A stretch of DNA of 64,000 bases from Pseudomonadota bacterium (GCA_026388655.1 JAPLJI010000057.1:3604-67603), one strand, 5' to 3'. Positions 1-48,020 are shown, counted from the first letter of the stretch. Notes: generated by a model from the letters alone, not told the origin. Translations and numbers: made by a program.

Positions 1-175
<175 letters not shown>

Positions 176-328
176 TTATCTGGTCTACCTGGTCTATCTG
201 GTCTGTCATTTTAATTGACGAATGACGATTTTAGATTGACGATTCAATTTTTTTGCATTCGTCAATCGTCATTTCTTATGATTTCTTTGGTTTTCACTCC
301 GCAATCCGCAATCTACAATCCGCAATCG

Positions 329-1318
329 TCATTTCTTCTTTGCCCTGACCACCCGGTCCCTTCCGGAAAGATCCGGCAGGATCATTATTTCTTCATACCC
401 TCCGGTTCGGGCCAGGATTTCCTCTACCGCCCGGGCCTGGTTATCCCCAATCTCCATCAGTAAAAACCCCGGGGTTTTGAGAAATTGAAATCCTTTTTCC
501 GCCACCCGGCGGATGACCCCGAGACCATCCTCCCCCCCATCCAGCGCCAACCGGGGTTCGCCGTTGGCAACCTCCGGGGCCAGGGTCGGGATCACGGCGC
601 TCGGAATGTAGGGTGGGTTGCATACCAGGAGATCAAAAAATCCGTGATATTGCTCCAGGGGCGCGAAAAGATCACCCGCTAAAAACTGGATTCTGTCTTC
701 GAGTTTGAGGCGGCGGGCATTCCCGGCCGCGATCCGGAGAGCTTCGGGAGACAGATCCGTGGCCCAGGCCCGGGCCTCCCGGATTTCCGTCAGAAGGGCC
801 AGGGCGACCGCTCCCGAACCCGTCCCCAAATCCAGGAAATTCAGTTCCGAGTTTCGAGTTTCGGGTTTCGGGTTCGGACGGGAAGAAGATTTTTCCATTC
901 CGCAATCCCTCCGGGCCGTAAGCCCTACTGGGCCGGAGGCCGCATTCCGTTTACCCTGATCGAAGTCGAAGGGCAATCCGCATTCTCTTGCCAGCCGGAT
1001 CGCTTCCTCCACCAACAGCTCGGTTTCCGGCCGCGGGATTAATACCCCGGGGGCTACCCGGATCGGGAGGGACCAGAACTCCCGCTCCCCCAGGAGGTAA
1101 AAAAGCGGTTCCCGTTCCCCCCTGCTCCGGATCAATTCCCGGTATTTCTTCTCTTCCGCCGGCGCGACCGGGGCCTCCCGGTCTCGGTAAAATTCCGCCC
1201 GGGCGATTCCGCCCGCCGAAAGGAAAAGCAACTCGGCCTCGACCCCGGAGCCGGGAATCCCCCGCCCTTCGAGATATTCCTTCCCCCATTCCACCAGGGC
1301 GCTGCGAGTTATCTTCAT
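329..1318 (-). CDS. prmC: Release-factor glutamine N5-methyltransferase PrmC/HemK, carrying an in-frame ~45-aa insertion encoded by a repeat element
   Basis: 329-aa ORF containing the PRPETE, DLGTGSGAVALAL and NPPY motifs, located immediately upstream of prfA as in many bacteria. The segment between the TELLVEEA motif and the DLGTGSG motif is ~40 aa longer than in E. coli PrmC. Confidence 0.85.
   Translation of the reverse strand: MKITRSALVEWGKEYLEGRGIPGSGVEAELLFLSAGGIARAEFYRDREAPVAPAEEKKYRELIRSRGEREPLFYLLGEREFWSLPIRVAPGVLIPRPETELLVEEAIRLARECGLPFDFDQGKRNAASGPVGLTARRDCGMEKSSSRPNPKPETRNSELNFLDLGTGSGAVALALLTEIREARAWATDLSPEALRIAAGNARRLKLEDRIQFLAGDLFAPLEQYHGFFDLLVCNPPYIPSAVIPTLAPEVANGEPRLALDGGEDGLGVIRRVAEKGFQFLKTPGFLLMEIGDNQARAVEEILARTGGYEEIMILPDLSGRDRVVRAKKK
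845..950. repeat. MITE/REP-like element copy inside the prmC reading frame, carrying a (GTTTCGRG)n array and a CCGCAATCCCTCCGGGCCG box
   Basis: The same composite motifs occur in the intergenic spacers at 7171-7330, 10884-11198 and 47808-48020. Here they are translated in-frame as part of PrmC. Confidence 0.7.
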
Positions 1319-1501: not shown

Positions 1502-2599
1502 TTATTGCCCGGGCATGGTCTGCAGGATAGATTCCGCGGCCTGGGTCTGGAAATGGGCGATCGCCCCTTCCACCAGCTCATCCAGTTCCCCGTCGAGGAC
1601 GCCTTCCAGGTTGTGCCGGCTCATCCCGATCCGGTGATCGGTGACCCGGCTCTGGGGAAAGTTGTAGGTCCGGATCTTTTCGCTGCGGTCCCCGGTTCCC
1701 ACCTGGGTCCGGCGGGCCTGGGAAATTTCCTTTTCCTGTTCCTGGCGATAGCGATCCATCAGCCGCGCCCGCAGGACCCGCATCCCCTTGGCCCGGTTCT
1801 TATGCTGGGATTTTTCGTCCTGGCACTGAACCACGATCCCGGTGGGCAGGTGGGTGATCCGGATCGCCGACTCCACCTTGTTGACGTTCTGGCCCCCGGG
1901 TCCCGAGGCCCGGAAGGAATCCACCCGGACCTCCTCTGGCTTGATTTCCACCTCCACCTCCTCAGCCTCCGGCAGGACCGCCACCGTGGCCGTGGAGGTA
2001 TGGATCCGTCCCGAGGCTTCCGTCGCCGGCACCCGCTGCACCCGGTGCACCCCGCTCTCGTACTGGAGGCGCCGGAAAGCCCCCTTGCCCTCCACCAGGG
2101 CGATGATCTCCTTCAAGCCCCCGGTGCCGGTCTGGCTCTTGCTCATCACCTCCACCCGGAAGCCTTTCCTTTCGGAGTACCGCGAATACATCCGGAAAAG
2201 ATCCGCTACGAACAGGGCCGCCTCGTCTCCGCCCGCGCCGGCCCGGATCTCGATAATTATATTCTTCTCGTCCCGGGGATCCCGGGGCACCAGGAGCGCC
2301 TGGATTTTTCCCTCGAGGCCCTTCTCCCGGTCCCTCAGGGTCTGCAATTCCTCCTGGACCAGCTCTTTCAACTCGGGATCACCCTCGGCAAACAGCTCCT
2401 CGTTCTTTTTCTTCTCGGCCTCCACCTTCCGCCACTCCCGGTAGGCCTGAGCAAGTTCCTCGATCTCCCGCCGCTCCGAGACGATCTTTTTGGTCTCCGG
2501 GGGGTTCTTTAAAACCGCCGGGTCCTGCAGCTTCCGGGAAAGCTCGTCGTAATGGGACCCGAGCTTCTCGAGGTAATCTAAGGTTTTGGAGTTCAGCAT
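1502..2599 (-). CDS. prfA: Peptide chain release factor 1
   Basis: 365-aa ORF with the GGQ motif ([37 protein letters not shown]), typical of RF1 and of RF1 length. Confidence 0.9.
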
Positions 2600-2683
2600 C
2601 CGGTTAATAAGCCGGTCCCCTCCTGGCCCGGAAGCTCGGACCCGTCGGGGCCCCGCTCTCTCCGAGGGCTGGGATCAGCCTGG

Positions 2684-2953
2684 TTACTTCGCCTTGGCGG
2701 ATTTGACGGATTTGACGGATTTGGCGGCTTTGGCGGAGCGGGCGTCCTGGGCGGCCTGCGAGTAGCGGCGCTGGAAGCGTTCCACCTTTCCGGCCGAGTC
2801 GATCAGCTTCTGCTTTCCGGTAAAGAACGGATGGCAGTTGGAACAGATGTCAATTTTGATTTCCCCTCCCCGGGTAGAGCGGGTTTCGATCCTGTTCCCG
2901 CAGGCGCAGAGAAATCGAGTGGGTTTATATTCCGGGTGAATTTCCTTTTGCAA
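2684..2953 (-). CDS. rpmE: 50S ribosomal protein L31 (zinc-ribbon type) with a repeat-encoded Lys/Ala-rich C-terminal tail
   Basis: The N-terminus reads MQKEIHPEY, with CxC...CSNCHPFFTG. The tail AKAAKSVKSVKSAKAK is encoded by ggatttgac tandem repeats at 2690-2730. Confidence 0.85.
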   Translation of the reverse strand: MQKEIHPEYKPTRFLCACGNRIETRSTRGGEIKIDICSNCHPFFTGKQKLIDSAGKVERFQRRYSQAAQDARSAKAAKSVKSVKSAKAK

Positions 2954-2963
2954 TTTTCCTCTC

Positions 2964-4298
2964 CTATTTATTCATGGACTCGATAAAATCGGCGTTGGTC
3001 TTGGTTCCCTGCATTTTATCCAGCATAAATTCCATCGCTTCGATCGGGGGCATCGGCTGCAGGATCTTCCGGAGAATATAGAGCCGGTTCAGGACTTCCT
3101 TGGTGAGGATCAATTCTTCCTTCCGGGTGCCGGAGCGGTTGATGTCGATCGCGGGGAAGATCCGCCGGTCGGCCAGGCGCCGATCCAGGACGATTTCCAT
3201 GTTGCCGGTGCCCTTGAACTCTTCAAAAATTACTTCGTCCATCTTGGACCCGGTTTCCACCAGGGCGGTGGCGATGATGGTCAGGCTACCCCCGTCCTCG
3301 ATATTCCGAGCGGCCCCGAAAAACCGCTTGGGGCGGTGGAGGGCGTTGGAATCCACCCCGCCGGAGAGCACCTTCCCGCTGGGAGGTACCACCGAGTTGT
3401 AAGCCCGGGCCAGCCGGGTGATGGAATCCAGCAAGATGACCACGTCTTTCTTGTGCTCGATCTGGCGCTTGGCCTTATCGAGCACCATCTCGGCCACCTG
3501 CACGTGCCGGGAAGCCGTTTCGTCAAACGTTGAGCTGATCACCTCGCCCTTGACCGAGCGCTGCATGTCGGTCACCTCCTCCGGCCGCTCGTCGATCAGT
3601 AAAACGATGAGCACGATCTCCGGGTGGTTGGCGGTGATGGAGTTGGCGATCGCCTGGAGGATCATGGTTTTCCCGGCCCGGGGCGGCGAGACGATCAGGC
3701 CCCGCTGGCCTTTGCCGATGGGGGTCAGGAGATCCATGATCCGCATGGTATAGTTTTTGGGTTCAAACTCGAGCTTGATCCGCTCGTTGGGATAGAGGGG
3801 GGTAAGGTTGTCGAAGAGCACCCGGTCGCGGACCGCTTCCGGGTCTTCGAGGTTAACTGCCTCGACCTTCAGCAGGGCGAAGTAGCGTTCCCCTTCCTTG
3901 GGGGGACGGACCTGCCCGGCCACGTTATCCCCGGTGCGGAGATCAAACCGGCGGATCTGGGAGGGGGAGACGTAAATGTCATCCGGGCCGGCCAGGTAGC
4001 TGTAGATCTGGGAGCGGAGGAACCCGAAACCGTCGGGCAGGATCTCCAGGACCCCGTCTCCGTAAATCAGGCCGTTCTGCTCGGCCTTGGCCTGGAGGAG
4101 GGAGAAAATCAAATCCTGTTTCCTCTGCCCGCTCGCCCCTTCCAGGTTCAAATCGCGGGCCAGGGACACCAGTTCCGACATCTTCATCAACTTCAATTCC
4201 CGTAGATTCAATTCCTTGTCGGAGTTGTTCTTTTTCCCTTTCCCCGTCCCTTTTTCCGACTCGATTACCTCAGTCTGCCCCTGAACCTGGGTTCCCAT
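2964..4298 (-). CDS. rho: Transcription termination factor Rho
   Basis: 444-aa ORF with the Walker A motif PPRAGKT, an OB-fold RNA-binding N-terminal domain, and the conserved Rho C-terminal RecA-like domain. Confidence 0.9.
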
Positions 4299-7149: not shown

Positions 7150-7170
7150 GGGGGAAAAATAAGTTTATAG

Positions 7171-7330
7171 TTTCAGGTTTATGGTTTCGAGTTAAAGGAC
7201 GGAAAGCATAAACTGAAAAAAAGGGTTGAGGGTTCGGAGAAAAATTTACGGTTTTGCTTTTGAGGTCGTGGGTTTCTGGCCTCCCCTTCTGAGTTTCTGA
7301 ACCCGAAACCCGAAACTCGAAACTTCAAAC
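7171..7330. repeat. MITE-like element with (GTTTCGAGTT)-type terminal inverted repeats in the tatD-metG spacer
   Basis: tttcaggtttatggtttcgagtt at the left end and gagtttctgaacccgaaacccgaaactcgaaac at the right end are mutually inverted. No ORF lies within. Confidence 0.6.
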
Positions 7331-7335
7331 ATTTT

Positions 7336-8862
7336 TTATTCTATCCTCGGGAAAAGCGCTCGACCCCGCTGGACCCGGCCGGGAGGCCAGGAAACCCGCC
7401 ATTCCGAGAGGGAAGAAAATCCATCGTTCCACTCGCTCCCGGCGATCCCCAGCTGCTTCCGCATCTCCACCCCGGAATCGGGGAGGAAGGGGGAAACGAA
7501 CAGGGTGATCCAGCGCAGGGACTCCAGGCTGGCGAAAAGCACCGTGTCCAGCCGGCCTTTCTTTTCCGGATCCTTGGCCAGGTTCCAGGGGGCGGCCCGG
7601 TCCAGGTAGCGGTTCACCGCTCCGACAAATTCCCAGACCGCGATTAAAGCCGACTGGAAGGCCAGCTCCGGGAGCAGGCGGTGATATTCCTCCCGGGCTT
7701 TTTCCGCCGCCGCGATCAGGGTCTTCTCCTCCGGACCGGTGTCGGCCGGGGGATACTCCCCGCCGCGGTAGCGCACCACCATGGCCAGGATCCGGGAAAA
7801 GAGGTTTCCCAGGTCGTTGGCGAGGTCGGAATTGATCCGGCCCACTAGGGCCGCCTGAGAATAGTCCCCGTCCAGCCCGAAGGGAACCTCCCGGAGGAGA
7901 AAATAGCGGAAAGCATCCACCCCGAAACGATCGGCCACCTCCCCCGGGTCCACCACGTTCCCGAGCGATTTGCTCATTTTCTTGCCCTCCACCGTCCACC
8001 AGCCGTGGGCAAAAACCCGGCGGGGCAGCGGGAGCCCGACCGACATCAGAAAGGCCGGCCAGTAAACCGCGTGGAAGCGGAGGATATCCTTCCCGATCAC
8101 GTGCAGGTCCGCCGGCCAGAACCGGGAGAAGCGGGAATCCTCCTCCGGAAACCCCGCCCCGGTCAGGTAATTGGTCAGGGCGTCAAACCAGACATAAATG
8201 ATATGGCCGGGGTCGTCCGGAACCGGGATTCCCCAGCGGAAAGTCGTCCGGGAGACGGAGAGATCCCGGAGACCGCCCTGGACGAAGCTCAGGATCTCGT
8301 TTCTCCGGGTCGGGGGAGAAATAAATTCCGGGTGACTCTCGATATGCCGGAGCAGTTTTTCCTGGTAACGGCTCATCCGAAAGAAGTAGCTCGCCTCCTT
8401 GAGTTTCTCCAGCGGCCGGCCGCAGTCGGGACAGACCGGTTTTTCTTCCTGGAGCCCGGGGATGAAATTTTCATCGTGGACGCAGTACCAGTCTTCGTAT
8501 TCCCCGAGGTAGATATCCCCGTTGGCCTTCACCCGGCGCCAGATTTCGGCCACCGCCCGGTACTGCCGCTCCTGAGAAGTTCGGATAAAATCATTGTGGG
8601 AAATGCTGAGCTTCCCCCAGAGCTGCCGGAAGCGCTCCACCACCTGGTCGGCCAGCTCGATGGGCTTCAGCCCCCGCTCCCGGGCCGCCCGCTCGATCTT
8701 CTGGCCGTGCTCGTCGGTCCCGGTCAGGAACAGAACCTCCCGTTTGTTCATCCTTTGATAACGGGCCAGGACATCGCAGGCCACCGTTGTGTAGGCATGC
8801 CCAATGTGGGGAACGTCGTTGACGTAATATATCGGCGTGGTTAGATAATATTTTTCCATCAA
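7336..8862 (-). CDS. metG: Methionyl-tRNA synthetase
   Basis: HIGH-type motif (PIYYVNDVPHIGHAYTT), KMSKS (KKMSKSLGNVVDP), and a CPDCGRP zinc knuckle. Confidence 0.9.
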   Translation of the reverse strand: MMEKYYLTTPIYYVNDVPHIGHAYTTVACDVLARYQRMNKREVLFLTGTDEHGQKIERAARERGLKPIELADQVVERFRQLWGKLSISHNDFIRTSQERQYRAVAEIWRRVKANGDIYLGEYEDWYCVHDENFIPGLQEEKPVCPDCGRPLEKLKEASYFFRMSRYQEKLLRHIESHPEFISPPTRRNEILSFVQGGLRDLSVSRTTFRWGIPVPDDPGHIIYVWFDALTNYLTGAGFPEEDSRFSRFWPADLHVIGKDILRFHAVYWPAFLMSVGLPLPRRVFAHGWWTVEGKKMSKSLGNVVDPGEVADRFGVDAFRYFLLREVPFGLDGDYSQAALVGRINSDLANDLGNLFSRILAMVVRYRGGEYPPADTGPEEKTLIAAAEKAREEYHRLLPELAFQSALIAVWEFVGAVNRYLDRAAPWNLAKDPEKKGRLDTVLFASLESLRWITLFVSPFLPDSGVEMRKQLGIAGSEWNDGFSSLSEWRVSWPPGRVQRGRALFPRIE

Positions 8863-9891: not shown

Positions 9892-10863
9892 TTAGTTTCT
9901 CCCCAGAAAGAGCTGATCCGCCGCCAGGCGCGGATTGGCATTGGCCCGCACCAGGGAAATGGTGGATTCCAGGATCTCGAGTCTCCGAAAGATATCCTCC
10001 CAGTCTCTTTCCCGCTCGGCCTCCAGCAGATCCTCGAGGTCGGGGTTAATGAGCGGCAAACCCTTTTCTCTCTTTCCGGGGGACAGCTTCCAGACCATCA
10101 GGTCCCGGAACAGGCCCCGGAAAAATTCCAGCTCTTCCAGGAGTTCCGCCCGGTCGGAGGCCATGACTTCCTCTCCGAGCCCGGTTCCCGCGTCCGTTTC
10201 CCGCCAGACCCGGCCGGCGAGTTCCCTTAAATGCTGGCGCGATTCGGGGGTGATGGCCAGGGCCCGGGCCAGGCTTCCCTGGGCGGATGCGGCGATCGCC
10301 TGGGCCTCCACCCGGGGCACCCCCCGCTTCTCTTCCAGGTAAGCGGCCATCTCTTCCCCGTTCAAGGGGGAAAAAAGCACCCGCTGGCAGCGCGACACGA
10401 TGGTGGGGAGCAATCCCTCCGGGCCCGGGGCGATCAGGATGAAAATCGCGCCTCCCGGCGGCTCTTCCAGTATCTTCAGGAGCGAATTGGCCGCCTGGGG
10501 GGTGAACTTTTCCGCCCCGTCAATCACGATAACCCTCCGGCTTCCCTCCCCGGGATGGTAAAAAAGTAACTTGTTGAGCTCCCGGATCTTCTCGATCTTG
10601 ATGGTTCCTTCCTCCGCGCCGTAAAAAATCACCTCGGGAAAATTCCCGGAATCAATCCGGCGGCAGACCGAGCAGGCGTCGCAAAAGTCCCCCCGGTTTC
10701 CTTCCGGGCAGGAAACCGCCTTGGCCAGGGCCCGGGCCACCTCCCGGCGGCCCACCCCCTCCGGCCCGGCAAAAAGGTAGGCGGGGGGAAGGCGGCGGCT
10801 GGCCACCGCGCTCCGGAGCATCTCGATCTCCTTCTTATGCCCGATTATCTCTTCCCAGCGCAT
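9892..10863 (-). CDS. holB: DNA polymerase III delta-prime subunit
   Basis: AAA+ clamp-loader motifs LFAGPEGVGRRE plus a CxxC zinc module (CPEGNRGDFCDACSVC). Confidence 0.8.
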   Translation of the reverse strand: MRWEEIIGHKKEIEMLRSAVASRRLPPAYLFAGPEGVGRREVARALAKAVSCPEGNRGDFCDACSVCRRIDSGNFPEVIFYGAEEGTIKIEKIRELNKLLFYHPGEGSRRVIVIDGAEKFTPQAANSLLKILEEPPGGAIFILIAPGPEGLLPTIVSRCQRVLFSPLNGEEMAAYLEEKRGVPRVEAQAIAASAQGSLARALAITPESRQHLRELAGRVWRETDAGTGLGEEVMASDRAELLEELEFFRGLFRDLMVWKLSPGKREKGLPLINPDLEDLLEAERERDWEDIFRRLEILESTISLVRANANPRLAADQLFLGRN

Positions 10864-10883
10864 CTCTCAAATCAAAGTTTATA

Positions 10884-11198
10884 ATTTCGGGTTTCGGGTT
10901 TCGAGTTTAAATCAATCATATTTTCCTGATCACCTGCTGCCCTGATATCCACTCCCTGATTCCCTGGTTACCTGATTTCCTTCGTTTCCCGTTTATCGTT
11001 TCTCGCAAGGCTGAAGCCTTGCCCTCTCCGAGCCGTAGGCTCTTCCGAGCCGGAGGCTACGTTCTGGTTAATCTGGTTTATTGAGTTTCTTTGGTTTAAC
11101 CCGAAACCAGAAACTAGAGACCCGAAACTTTCTTTATATATTCCGCAATCCCTCCGGGCCGGAGGCCGCAATCTGCAATCCGCAATTCATTTTGTTTT
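10884..11198. repeat. Composite repeat block containing (TTTCGGG)n inverted arms, a CCTGAT-type repeat, GCTGAAGCC hairpins and a CCGCAATCC box
   Basis: tttcgggtttcgggtttcgagttt at 10884 pairs with cccgaaaccagaaactagagacccgaaac at 11100. ttccgcaatccctccgggccggaggccgcaatctgcaatccgcaat at 11151 matches the sequence at 901-950. Confidence 0.6.
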
Positions 11199-39618: not shown

Positions 39619-39820
39619 CTCGCCTCCGATCTGGTCTGTCTTGTCTATTTAGTCTATCTGGTTCATTTAGTCTGTTTAGTCTGTTTGGTTTATCTGGTTT
39701 ATCTGGTTTATCTGGTTTCTCCGGTTTCTTTGGTTAACTGATACCCTGATGCCCTGATATCCATCTCCTGATTCCCTGATTGCCTGATTTCCTGTTTTCT
39801 CTTTCTAGCCACCTAACCAC

Positions 39821-40282
39821 CTAGCTACCTTTATTTTTTTTCCGGTGCACCATCAGCATCGCGTCCCCGGTTTGGATCACCTTGCCGTCCTGGTTCAAAA
39901 GCTCCCGGCGGAAGCGGACGATCCCGCGGTCATCCTTCTTGGTCTCGCGTTTTTCGACCACCGTTTGCCGGGAATGGATGGTATCTCCGATCCGGAGAGG
40001 CGCTTGGAATTCCATGTTGAACCCCATGAAGGCCATCGTCGCGATCGGGGCGATCGGCCGCCGGAGACCCGAGGCGATCGCCACCCCCAGGAGGTCATGG
40101 GCGGTCCGTTCCCCCGCCGGCGAGGTCCGGCCGTAAGTCTCGTTCATGTGCTGGGGGCGGAAATCCCCGGAGATGGCCGCGAACATCTGGACGTCCGCCA
40201 CCGTGACCACCCGGGCATCGGTAAGAAAATTCTGCCCCACCTCCAGGTCTTCATAATAAAGCCGATTTTCCTCGTATCCCAT
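39821..40282 (-). CDS. MaoC-like dehydratase, second paralogue
   Basis: DFRPQHMN...TAHDLL motif. A repeat-filled spacer separates it from the first paralogue. Confidence 0.7.
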   Translation of the reverse strand: MGYEENRLYYEDLEVGQNFLTDARVVTVADVQMFAAISGDFRPQHMNETYGRTSPAGERTAHDLLGVAIASGLRRPIAPIATMAFMGFNMEFQAPLRIGDTIHSRQTVVEKRETKKDDRGIVRFRRELLNQDGKVIQTGDAMLMVHRKKNKGS

Positions 40283-47807: not shown

Positions 47808-48020
47808 ATTTCGAGTTTCTGGTTTCGAGTTCCGAGTTAATAACCAAAAAGCGTAAATTTTGTTGACGCCATTAAAGTTACGAGTTTCGAGTCTCGAGTT
47901 TCGAGTTCAAGACCAAAGATAGAATAACTATCCTGTTTACTGACTCAATATTTAAATTCGCTTGTGCGGTTGATTTATTTCTTTGTTCAACCAGAAACCA
48001 GAAACTCGCAACTCGAAACT
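47808..48020. repeat. MITE-like element with (GTTTCGAGTT)n terminal inverted repeats in the spacer upstream of the CrtI-like gene
   Basis: tttcgagtttctggtttcgagttccgagtt at the left, gagtttcgagtctcgagtttcgagtt internally, and aaccagaaaccagaaactcgcaactcgaaac at the right. Confidence 0.6.

Follow-up and report, generated by a model that had tools for sequence, protein, structure and literature searches.

How does the gene for a core enzyme of translation termination come to be lengthened, in the middle of its catalytic domain, by DNA of the kind that otherwise lies between genes? This question is raised by the prmC gene in a 64,000-nucleotide stretch of DNA from a Pseudomonadota bacterium (GCA_026388655.1, JAPLJI010000057.1:3604-67603), which is referred to here as the window and from whose first letter window positions are counted. 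The open reading frame (ORF) at 329-1318 on the minus strand encodes PrmC, the release-factor glutamine N5-methyltransferase, as a protein of 329 amino acids. A sequence-only reading of this DNA had proposed that one repeat element, resembling the Rickettsia palindromic elements (RPEs), was inserted in-frame into prmC and lengthened the enzyme by about 40-45 residues. In this report, we find about 40 extra residues in PrmC encoded by DNA of the genome's intergenic type, and this DNA is a mosaic of two unrelated heptanucleotide arrays and two nested hairpin inserts rather than a single palindromic element. The extra residues are probably a tolerated and disordered passenger that was built from the genome's own repeat systems, filtered for an open frame, and exchanged as cassettes, with mini-hairpins inserting into the arrays.

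The protein (MCX5866603.1) was annotated by NCBI as release factor glutamine methyltransferase, in a metagenome-assembled genome (MAG) labelled Proteobacteria/Pseudomonadota bacterium; the source metagenomes are from lake sediment. Pfam PrmC_N, MTS, and Methyltransf domains were found, with matches to PF17827 (PrmC_N helical domain) and PF05175 (small class I methyltransferase domain). The catalytic motifs are unbroken in the homologue alignments, where the GTGSG loop for S-adenosylmethionine (SAM), N234-P-P-Y237, and other invariant residues are kept. The gene is directly downstream of prfA (1502-2599, minus strand), and this order is the same in relatives. The helical domain, the methyltransferase domain with its motifs, and the linkage to prfA place the protein in the PrmC/HemK family, and a full-length and active PrmC would be expected to be produced.

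The distance between the PRPETE and DLGTGSG motifs is 62 residues in the window PrmC, compared with 17-27 residues in 90 of the 112 homologues that have both motifs, and PrmC therefore contains about 40 extra residues. The alignment of orthologues that the sequence-only reading had suggested was made first with 15 homologues and then with 107. In both alignments, the extra segment follows the PRPETELLVEEA helix and precedes the LDLGTGSG SAM loop, and the peptide NAASGPVGLTAR falls within residues 113-158. At the DNA level, the variable cassette is located at 836-997 on the minus strand; this entire stretch is unlike that of the near-identical contig L006, and it encodes RLARECGLPFDFDQGKRNAASGPVGLTARRDCGMEKSSSRPNPKPETRNSELNF, with a net gain of about 40 amino acids over an ordinary PrmC. 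The reading frame across the extra segment is open by construction.

The cassette combines, as a mosaic, two 7-mer arrays that are unrelated to each other with two nested hairpin inserts of 33 and 24 nt. On the coding strand, it begins with ATTGCGG-type units at 974-985 (gaatgcggattg; CCGCAAT-type on the plus strand), as delimited by the alignment of the relatives' DNA, which are translated as ECGL. The array is split at 950-973 by the 24-nt insert cccttcgacttcgatcagggtaaa (minus strand), which encodes PFDFDQGK, and continues at 940-949 (plus strand) with a unit that encodes RNA. Next to this unit is the nested hairpin at 908-939 (CCTCCGGGCCGTAAGCCCTACTGGGCCGGAGG on the plus strand and gCCTCCGGCCCAGTAGGGCTTACGGCCCGGAGG on the coding strand), an insert of 33 nt when one flanking G/C is counted, which encodes ASGPVGLTARR and has a predicted RNA folding energy of -17.9 kcal/mol. 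The hairpin pattern occurs 2 times in the window, compared with 0.15 expected. The array resumes on the other side of the hairpin at 897-907 (plus strand), where it encodes DCG. It is followed by a 19-nt spacer at 878-896 (ggaaaaatcttcttcccgt, minus strand), which is kept in the relatives' cassettes of the same type (type A, below), and by the second array at 843-877, where about 4.6 GTTTCGR units on the plus strand, found by Tandem Repeats Finder (TRF) and by a motif scan, are read on the coding strand as CGAAACY and translated as NPKPETRNSEL. No inverted arms of at least 12 nt were found in the segment 820-1000, which has a single GTTTCGR arm, and its RNA fold was no better than that of shuffled sequences (z -0.26). 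The insert has no terminal inverted repeats, and no duplication was found at the cassette borders.

The similarity of this DNA to intergenic sequence, which had been proposed by inspection, is significant on formal alignment. When 830-989 was compared with the window by BLAST, the GTTTCGR array at 850-875 matched 7324-7299 (26/26, E 5e-9). The CCGCAAT unit and its junction with the hairpin at 897-918 matched 11140-11161 (22/22, E 1e-6), and the junction on the other side of the hairpin, at 930-944, matched 11156-11170 (15/15). With the same query, 47876-47908, 47989-48020, 47809-47832, 10885-10907, and 11098-11129 were matched with E values from 4e-6 to 8e-4. A 16/16 match at 10410-10425 was judged to be due to chance; it lies inside the conserved PGPEGLLPT region of a protein gene, which we take from its motifs to encode a DNA polymerase III delta'-like AAA+ protein. 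The double unit of GTTTCGR (GTTTCGRGTTTCG), with at most 2 mismatches, was found 30 times in the window compared with 6.3 expected, a count reached in 0 of 100 shuffles. The double unit of CCGCAAT (CCGCAATCCGCAAT) was found 8 times compared with 0.85 expected, and no shuffle reached 8. No full-length sister copy of the prmC insert was found in the 64-kb window, where the matches are modules of 15-33 nt whose order and orientation vary. What the intergenic sites have in common with prmC is thus a set of modules, the arrays and the hairpin junction, and not the one composite repeat that had been described at all of them.

The three intergenic sites that the sequence-only reading had listed are foldbacks in which inverted GTTTCGR arms of 30-38 nt are 106-184 nt apart. 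The first, at 7156-7337, has its arms at 7156-7193 and 7300-7337 and holds the 26/26 match to the prmC array. The second, at 10874-11131, has its arms at 10874-10910 and 11095-11131 and contains more arrays and small hairpins in its interior. The third, at 47809-48020, has its arms at 47809-47838 and 47989-48018 and an extra array at 47876-47907. A CCGCAAT array at 11140-11186 (plus strand) contains a 15-nt short form of the prmC hairpin (11151-11165) with junctions identical to those in prmC, and this short form could be derived from the long form by a deletion between GGGCCG direct repeats. By TRF and our own period scan, the period-7 and period-8 arrays elsewhere in the window are all intergenic, and prmC is the sole exception. 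The divergent intergenic region at 39619-39845 is little else than a succession of tandem arrays with 8- and 9-nt units (GTCTATTTA, TGGTTTATC, CCTGATNC, and CTAGCCAC). An Rfam scan at the gathering thresholds and a tRNA scan of the whole window gave no matches, and the repeats therefore correspond to no known RNA family.

Ten relatives with 65-98% protein identity, all of them metagenome assemblies, were compared together with their DNA. An in-frame extra segment was found at the prmC site in 10/10 of these close relatives, and its content varies. The type A cassette (the window, L013/14, L001, L004, L005, L007, and L008) is composed of an ATTGCGG array, a spacer, and a CGAAACY array. The type B cassette (L006 and L011/12) contains GGAGCYC, AATCAAA, and CCCCTGC arrays, and the type B' cassette (L002 and L009/10) contains a GGAGCAG array that is followed in L002 by a TCGTCAA array. 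These exchanges occur between very similar flanks. Identity between L006 and the window amounts to 97.3% for prfA and, for prmC, to 98.7% on the 5' side and 95.9% on the 3' side. Neither the cassette nor the prfA-prmC spacer aligns at all, however; the L006 cassette is in-frame and is made of GGAGCCC, AATCAAA, and CCCCTGC. The flanks of L007 (type A) are likewise 92-97% identical to those of L002 and L009 (type B').

The spacers on the two sides of prmC behave in the same way. The prmC-murA spacer of the window (126-328), which consists of CTGGTCTAC, ATTGACG, and CCGCAAT arrays, and the spacer on the other side of prmC (1319-1501) are both replaced by unrelated repeat-rich DNA in L013 (3991-4163 and 2696-3000). 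The genes of L013 are 97.6-100% identical to those of the window, and the spacers retain only their promoter-proximal ends, about 25-30 nt beside each start codon. The replacement of the cassette in L006 and of the spacers in L013 indicates that the prmC linker evolves as the intergenic spacers of the genome do, with the additional constraint of an open frame. The frame is kept in every full-length variant examined, and the number of units is constant among alleles that are 97-100% identical (the window, L013, L014, P0122, and P0124). The prmC genes of L004 and L011 are 70-75% identical to the main clade in their 5' halves and 89-97% identical in their 3' halves, a pattern that suggests a breakpoint in or close to the cassette, produced either by recombination or by chimeric assembly.

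The hairpin itself is present in some relatives and absent in others. The 33-nt hairpin and a second insert of 15-24 nt are absent in L001, L005, and L008, where the ATTGCGG array is unbroken, and present in the window, L013, L004, and L007. The second insert is 15 nt long in L007 (cccttacagggtaaa) and 24 nt long, with other content, in L004. In L005 and P0013, a copy of the hairpin family is found in the CGAAAC array instead, where it is read in another frame as LRPVRAYGPEG. Presence and absence of the hairpin at the same array among relatives amounts to filled and empty sites, as is classically seen after insertion or precise loss. The closest relatives thus also have an extra stretch at this position of PrmC, but its contents vary and are repeats of the intergenic type, and the proposal of in-frame repeat DNA in prmC is refined and not refuted by them.

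Structure prediction with AlphaFold2 gave a model of PrmC with a mean predicted local distance difference test score (pLDDT) of 89.4 and a predicted template modeling score (pTM) of 0.83. Residues 118-155, between the helix at 97-112 and strand β1 at 159-164, have pLDDT values below 50 save for two isolated residues, so that the low-scoring part falls into three segments. As the sequence-only reading had envisaged, the insert is a predicted surface loop just before Rossmann strand β1, modeled with low confidence, and it is probably disordered. Foldseek matched the ordered part of the model to the HemK/PrmC structures 1NV8, 2B3T, and 1T43 from Thermotoga and Escherichia coli, of which 2B3T is the complex with release factor 1, with target-normalized TM scores of 0.89-0.92 and E values of about 1e-24. 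Rossmann-type methyltransferases bind the cofactor and substrate at the C-terminal ends of the strands, and the loop that leads into β1 is at the opposite edge. By this rule, the insert would lie at the far end of the Rossmann sheet from the pocket that binds SAM and the substrate.

In-frame 7-mer arrays were also found in PrmC proteins that are only 42-45% identical to that of the window, in the same helix-β1 loop and within a few residues of the same position. In L135, [GTTTCGA]x4.5 and [CGAAACY]x4.5 are separated by 35 nt and form a perfect foldback (RNA -43.4 kcal/mol, z -4.2). Inverted arrays of the GTTCCAA type are found in the loop of L136, and [GGGGTCA]x4 with [TGNACCC]x4 in the loop of L137 (RNA fold z -3.8). 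A protein from an NC10 MAG (P0100) has the peptide signature WPVASGQWP...HWSLVTDH. The order rpmE-prfA-prmC-murA is common to the distant array-bearing lineages. The array-bearing distant PrmC proteins are no nearer to the window PrmC than the array-free ones (42-45% versus 45-48% identity), and the nearest outgroup, P0012 (55% identical), has a short loop that is free of arrays. When proteins were searched with the translation of the CGAAAC array, the only matches were short spurious ORFs that run over long arrays, telomere-like repeats of eukaryotes among them. The annotated N-terminal extensions of the PrmC proteins at L135 2761-2789, L136 2860-2926, and L137 1586-1642 are translated 7-mer arrays as well (GTGCGAG, GTGCGAA/CGCACCC, and CCGAAAT, respectively); they may be real, or upstream spacer may have been wrongly taken into the ORF.

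The orientation of the arrays is informative about selection. Each array family in the prmC cassettes is free of stop codons as oriented, and three of them would contain stops if turned around. One arm in L137, for which TGACCCC units would be expected, has TGG/TGT/TGCACCC in every unit. This avoidance of TGA, together with the stop-free state of all of the arrays, is direct evidence that selection keeps the prmC frame open.

The nested hairpin belongs to a family that is found well beyond these relatives. A metagenome scan was made with the pattern CCTCCGGSCC-N5-20-GGSCCGGAGG, which imposes the outer stem but not the loop. Among the matches listed, at least about 35 family members have a common loop and define the consensus CCTCCGGCCC NNN GGGCCTAC GGCCCGGAGG, flanked by G on both sides and 31-33 nt in length. 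The contigs that host the listed members have 36-60% GC and come from many environments. Many of these hairpins are nested exactly between the units of 7-mer arrays of various families: ATTGACG arrays (L035 8954-8985 and L126 1410-1441), a GAGACTC/CGAAAC array (L120 119-150), a GGAGGTT array (L102 11795-11826), a GTTACGG array (L022 1149-1179), and an AATCAAA array (L040). Of the 17 forward-orientation copies that were read, 13 have GA at the start of the right flank, which hints at a target preference of the hairpin. Two further copies are in-frame within protein genes. One is at L025 2809-2839 in a DnaX gene confirmed by Pfam (ORF 1926-3425, plus strand; contig GC 38%), where it encodes ASGPEGLRPGG, and the other is at L090 2555-2585 in a RadA gene (ORF 2381-3100, minus strand; contig GC 41%), where it encodes LRAVGPMGRRQ. 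When the L090 RadA was aligned with structure 5LKM, an alignment gap fell exactly at LRAVGPMGRRQ. A BLAST search of the PLSDB plasmids with the hairpin consensus gave no match, possibly owing to low-complexity filtering or to the shortness of the query, and a literature search with the hairpin sequence gave unrelated primer matches only.

The hairpin also affects assembly. Two Logan contigs, independent of each other, break off within the 33-nt prmC hairpin (L138 1-30 and L139 1-40), and gene callers consequently report a 189-residue "short PrmC" that starts at a Met within the insert. The members of this cluster were considered as possible frameshift alleles and ruled out as such, being truncations at contig ends.

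Two observations concern the neighborhood of prmC. In rpmE (ORF 2684-2953, minus strand), the lysine-rich C-terminal tail of L31, SAKAAKSVKSVKSAKAK, is derived from a 9-nt tandem repeat of about 5 units at 2691-2736, and the same repeat is found in L013. The motif TATAAACTT (gene strand) is located at 1322-1332, 7161-7169, and 10876-10884, about 10-25 nt upstream of several minus-strand starts. It abuts the array arms, is retained upstream of prmC in relatives, and could serve as a leader element or as the -10 element of a promoter.

The explanation that we favor is that a piece of the fast-evolving, intergenic-type repeat DNA of this lineage is translated as the roughly 40 extra residues of PrmC. 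The 33- and 24-nt hairpin elements would have been inserted later into the ATTGCGG array, and hairpins would be gained and lost at the prmC site. The insert would be tolerated in the loop between helix 97-112 and β1 159-164 as a functionally neutral passenger, and selection on prmC would act only as a filter, such that the survivors have an intact frame free of stop codons. The cassettes would be exchanged among close strains; the most likely routes are homologous recombination by way of the conserved flanks and ectopic conversion with other arrays as donors. Several points weigh against this explanation. The relatives are metagenome assemblies, and the mosaic flanks of L004 and L011 could be chimeras. 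The low pLDDT is no proof of disorder. The presence of 7-mer arrays in this loop of PrmC proteins that are only 42-45% identical exceeds what a randomly hit permissive site predicts, and an internal array is found in only 1 of the roughly 55 genes in the window. The recurrence and the rarity hint at targeting, at ancient inheritance with turnover, or at some function. A more ambitious proposal, which we regard as tentative and rather doubtful, is that the hairpin is an ultra-small, site-preferring (N^GA) mobile element that crosses unrelated lineages, colonizes 7-mer arrays, and enters essential genes such as prmC, dnaX, and radA in-frame, and that the helix-β1 loop of PrmC is a recurrently targeted or maintained landing pad for foldback 7-mer arrays across deep lineages, possibly with a role at the level of the nucleic acid.

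Other explanations were weighed against the favored one. The recurrence in the same loop, filled in each lineage by that lineage's own array families, would follow from a single ancient foldback insertion in the ancestor of a broad clade that includes NC10-like bacteria, later overwritten by concerted evolution with the dominant 7-mer families of each genome, and the common rpmE-prfA-prmC-murA order is compatible with it. This account, which differs from the favored one in history only, is unlikely: the array-bearing proteins are no closer to the window PrmC than the array-free ones, the loop of the nearest outgroup is short and without arrays, and the boundaries of the inserts are shifted by a few residues. 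Transposition of one discrete RPE- or MITE-like palindromic element (MITE, miniature inverted-repeat transposable element) into prmC as a whole, with the intergenic sites as its sister copies, is quite unlikely. The intergenic sites are indeed foldbacks with array arms, and the complete in-frame foldbacks of L135 and L137, with their strong stems (z -4.2 and -3.8), make an ancestral insertion of such a unit conceivable; however, the window insert has one GTTTCGR arm to which its CCGCAAT array is not complementary, no inverted pair of at least 12 nt, no better fold than shuffled sequence, no full-length copy elsewhere in the 64 kb, and no evident target-site duplication.

The recurrence across lineages, the polymorphism of the cassettes in close strains, and a unit length that is not a multiple of 3 would also fit a functional segment. 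The segment could be a phase-variable switch in which gain or loss of a 7-nt unit shifts the frame, turns PrmC off, and tunes stop-codon readthrough; a cis-acting nucleic-acid site, such as a protein-binding array or a regulatory hairpin inside the gene; or a linker on which diversifying selection acts. We consider a function of this kind very improbable. The arrays are short (at most 4.6 units) and imperfect, no variation in unit number was found among the near-identical alleles, and no frameshifted allele was found among the full-length variants, the two truncated gene calls being contig ends. Misjoining of repeat DNA into the gene by assembly or binning has a negligible probability, even though assemblies do break at the hairpin, because the identical 329-residue protein or allele is found on independent long contigs from NCBI (70.6 kb), ENA (69.3 kb), and JGI (33 and 52 kb) and also in Logan data, and because the frame is preserved in every variant. 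Translated, tolerated, and exchanged repeat DNA therefore remains the explanation that we prefer.

A comparison with known repeat systems helps to place this segment. RPEs (Ogata et al. 2000/2002), as summarized in PMC10969869 and PMC3733652, are discrete, about 100-150 bp long, and united by a family consensus, and they fold into a long palindrome. The prmC insert resembles RPEs in that otherwise intergenic repeat DNA is found in-frame in a housekeeping gene, as a surface peptide compatible with fold and function. It differs in that it is composed of 7-mer arrays and hairpins of 15-33 nt, has no foldback and no full-length sister copy, and is exchanged among strains; its lineage is unrelated to Rickettsia. 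The likeness that had been drawn to RPEs thus stands for the effect on the protein, an in-frame lengthening of a housekeeping gene product, and fails for the form, since a discrete palindrome and full-length dispersed copies are absent and the insert is a mosaic without terminal inverted repeats. The terminal inverted repeats and target-site duplications of MITEs are absent from the prmC insert as well. The array arms of the intergenic copies could act as terminal inverted repeats, and no target-site duplication was seen there.

In substance, the closest parallel is with heptanucleotide repeats of bacteria, such as the short tandemly repeated repetitive (STRR) sequences of heterocystous cyanobacteria, the GGGNATC repeats of Xanthomonas and Nostoc (PMC4692102), and the TAACTGA repeats of Beggiatoaceae (PMC4679880). 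In both cases there are many 7-nt families with about 3-5 copies, mostly intergenic near gene ends and common to distant lineages, and stop codons limit the orientation in ORFs, as was argued for TAACTGA (PMC4679880). The arrays described here are STRR-like simple sequence repeats, with tandem 7-nt units in at least 3 copies, several families, and intergenic enrichment, and they are also found in relatives. The differences are that the intragenic cases reported previously are mainly at the ends of ORFs, whereas here two arrays are in the middle of a catalytic domain of an essential-type enzyme, and that the prmC arrays form foldback pairs in certain lineages and vary by entire cassettes.

For the hairpin, two families are relevant. 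Repetitive extragenic palindromic (REP) and REPIN elements, some of which are inside ORFs (PMC3733652 and PMC3116915), are likewise GC-rich palindromes of 20-40 nt that are dispersed and at times within genes and translated. The hairpin consensus lacks the terminal GTAG or CGTC tag of these elements, however; a GTAG-like tetranucleotide is internal only, with the window copy having just the reverse complement CTAC, and the preferred context of the hairpin is 7-mer arrays. No cognate RAYT (Y1 transposase) gene was seen, no search aimed at one having been made. The prmC hairpin is also tiny, nested in tandem heptamers, and polymorphic in its presence, and in these respects it resembles the small dispersed repeats (SDRs) of cyanobacteria. 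The SDRs of Nostoc punctiforme, studied by Elhai et al. in 2008, are reportedly hairpins of 21-27 nt that are nested in tandem heptamers and in each other; they are said to be confined to a subgroup of cyanobacteria and to show a presence/absence polymorphism that suggests mobility. The hairpin described here differs from SDRs in its length of 31-33 nt, its high GC content, its occurrence in contigs of 36-60% GC from many environments, and its in-frame positions in dnaX and radA. A precise insertion of SDR5 into HIP1 is cited in PMC4390886. In our analysis, the prmC insert is similar to RPEs and intragenic REPs in effect and belongs in substance with the bacterial heptanucleotide repeats. New are the mid-domain site in a core enzyme, the strain-level replacement of cassettes, the repeated use of one loop in deeply separated lineages, and an in-frame hairpin family that crosses GC classes.

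For annotation, peptides with a periodicity of 7 residues, such as KPETRNS and FEFRVSS, are repeat-derived when they occur in proteins that are otherwise conserved, and the hairpin is a place where assemblies tend to break. The hairpin family may rank among the smallest mobile DNAs outside cyanobacteria, and its empty and filled sites make mobility and target preference testable. The prmC cassettes are a natural map of an insertion-tolerant loop of PrmC and a tractable example of repeats that create variation in protein length. Intergenic, junk-like repeats can be written into the middle of the catalytic domain of a core translation-termination enzyme, kept in frame, and swapped.

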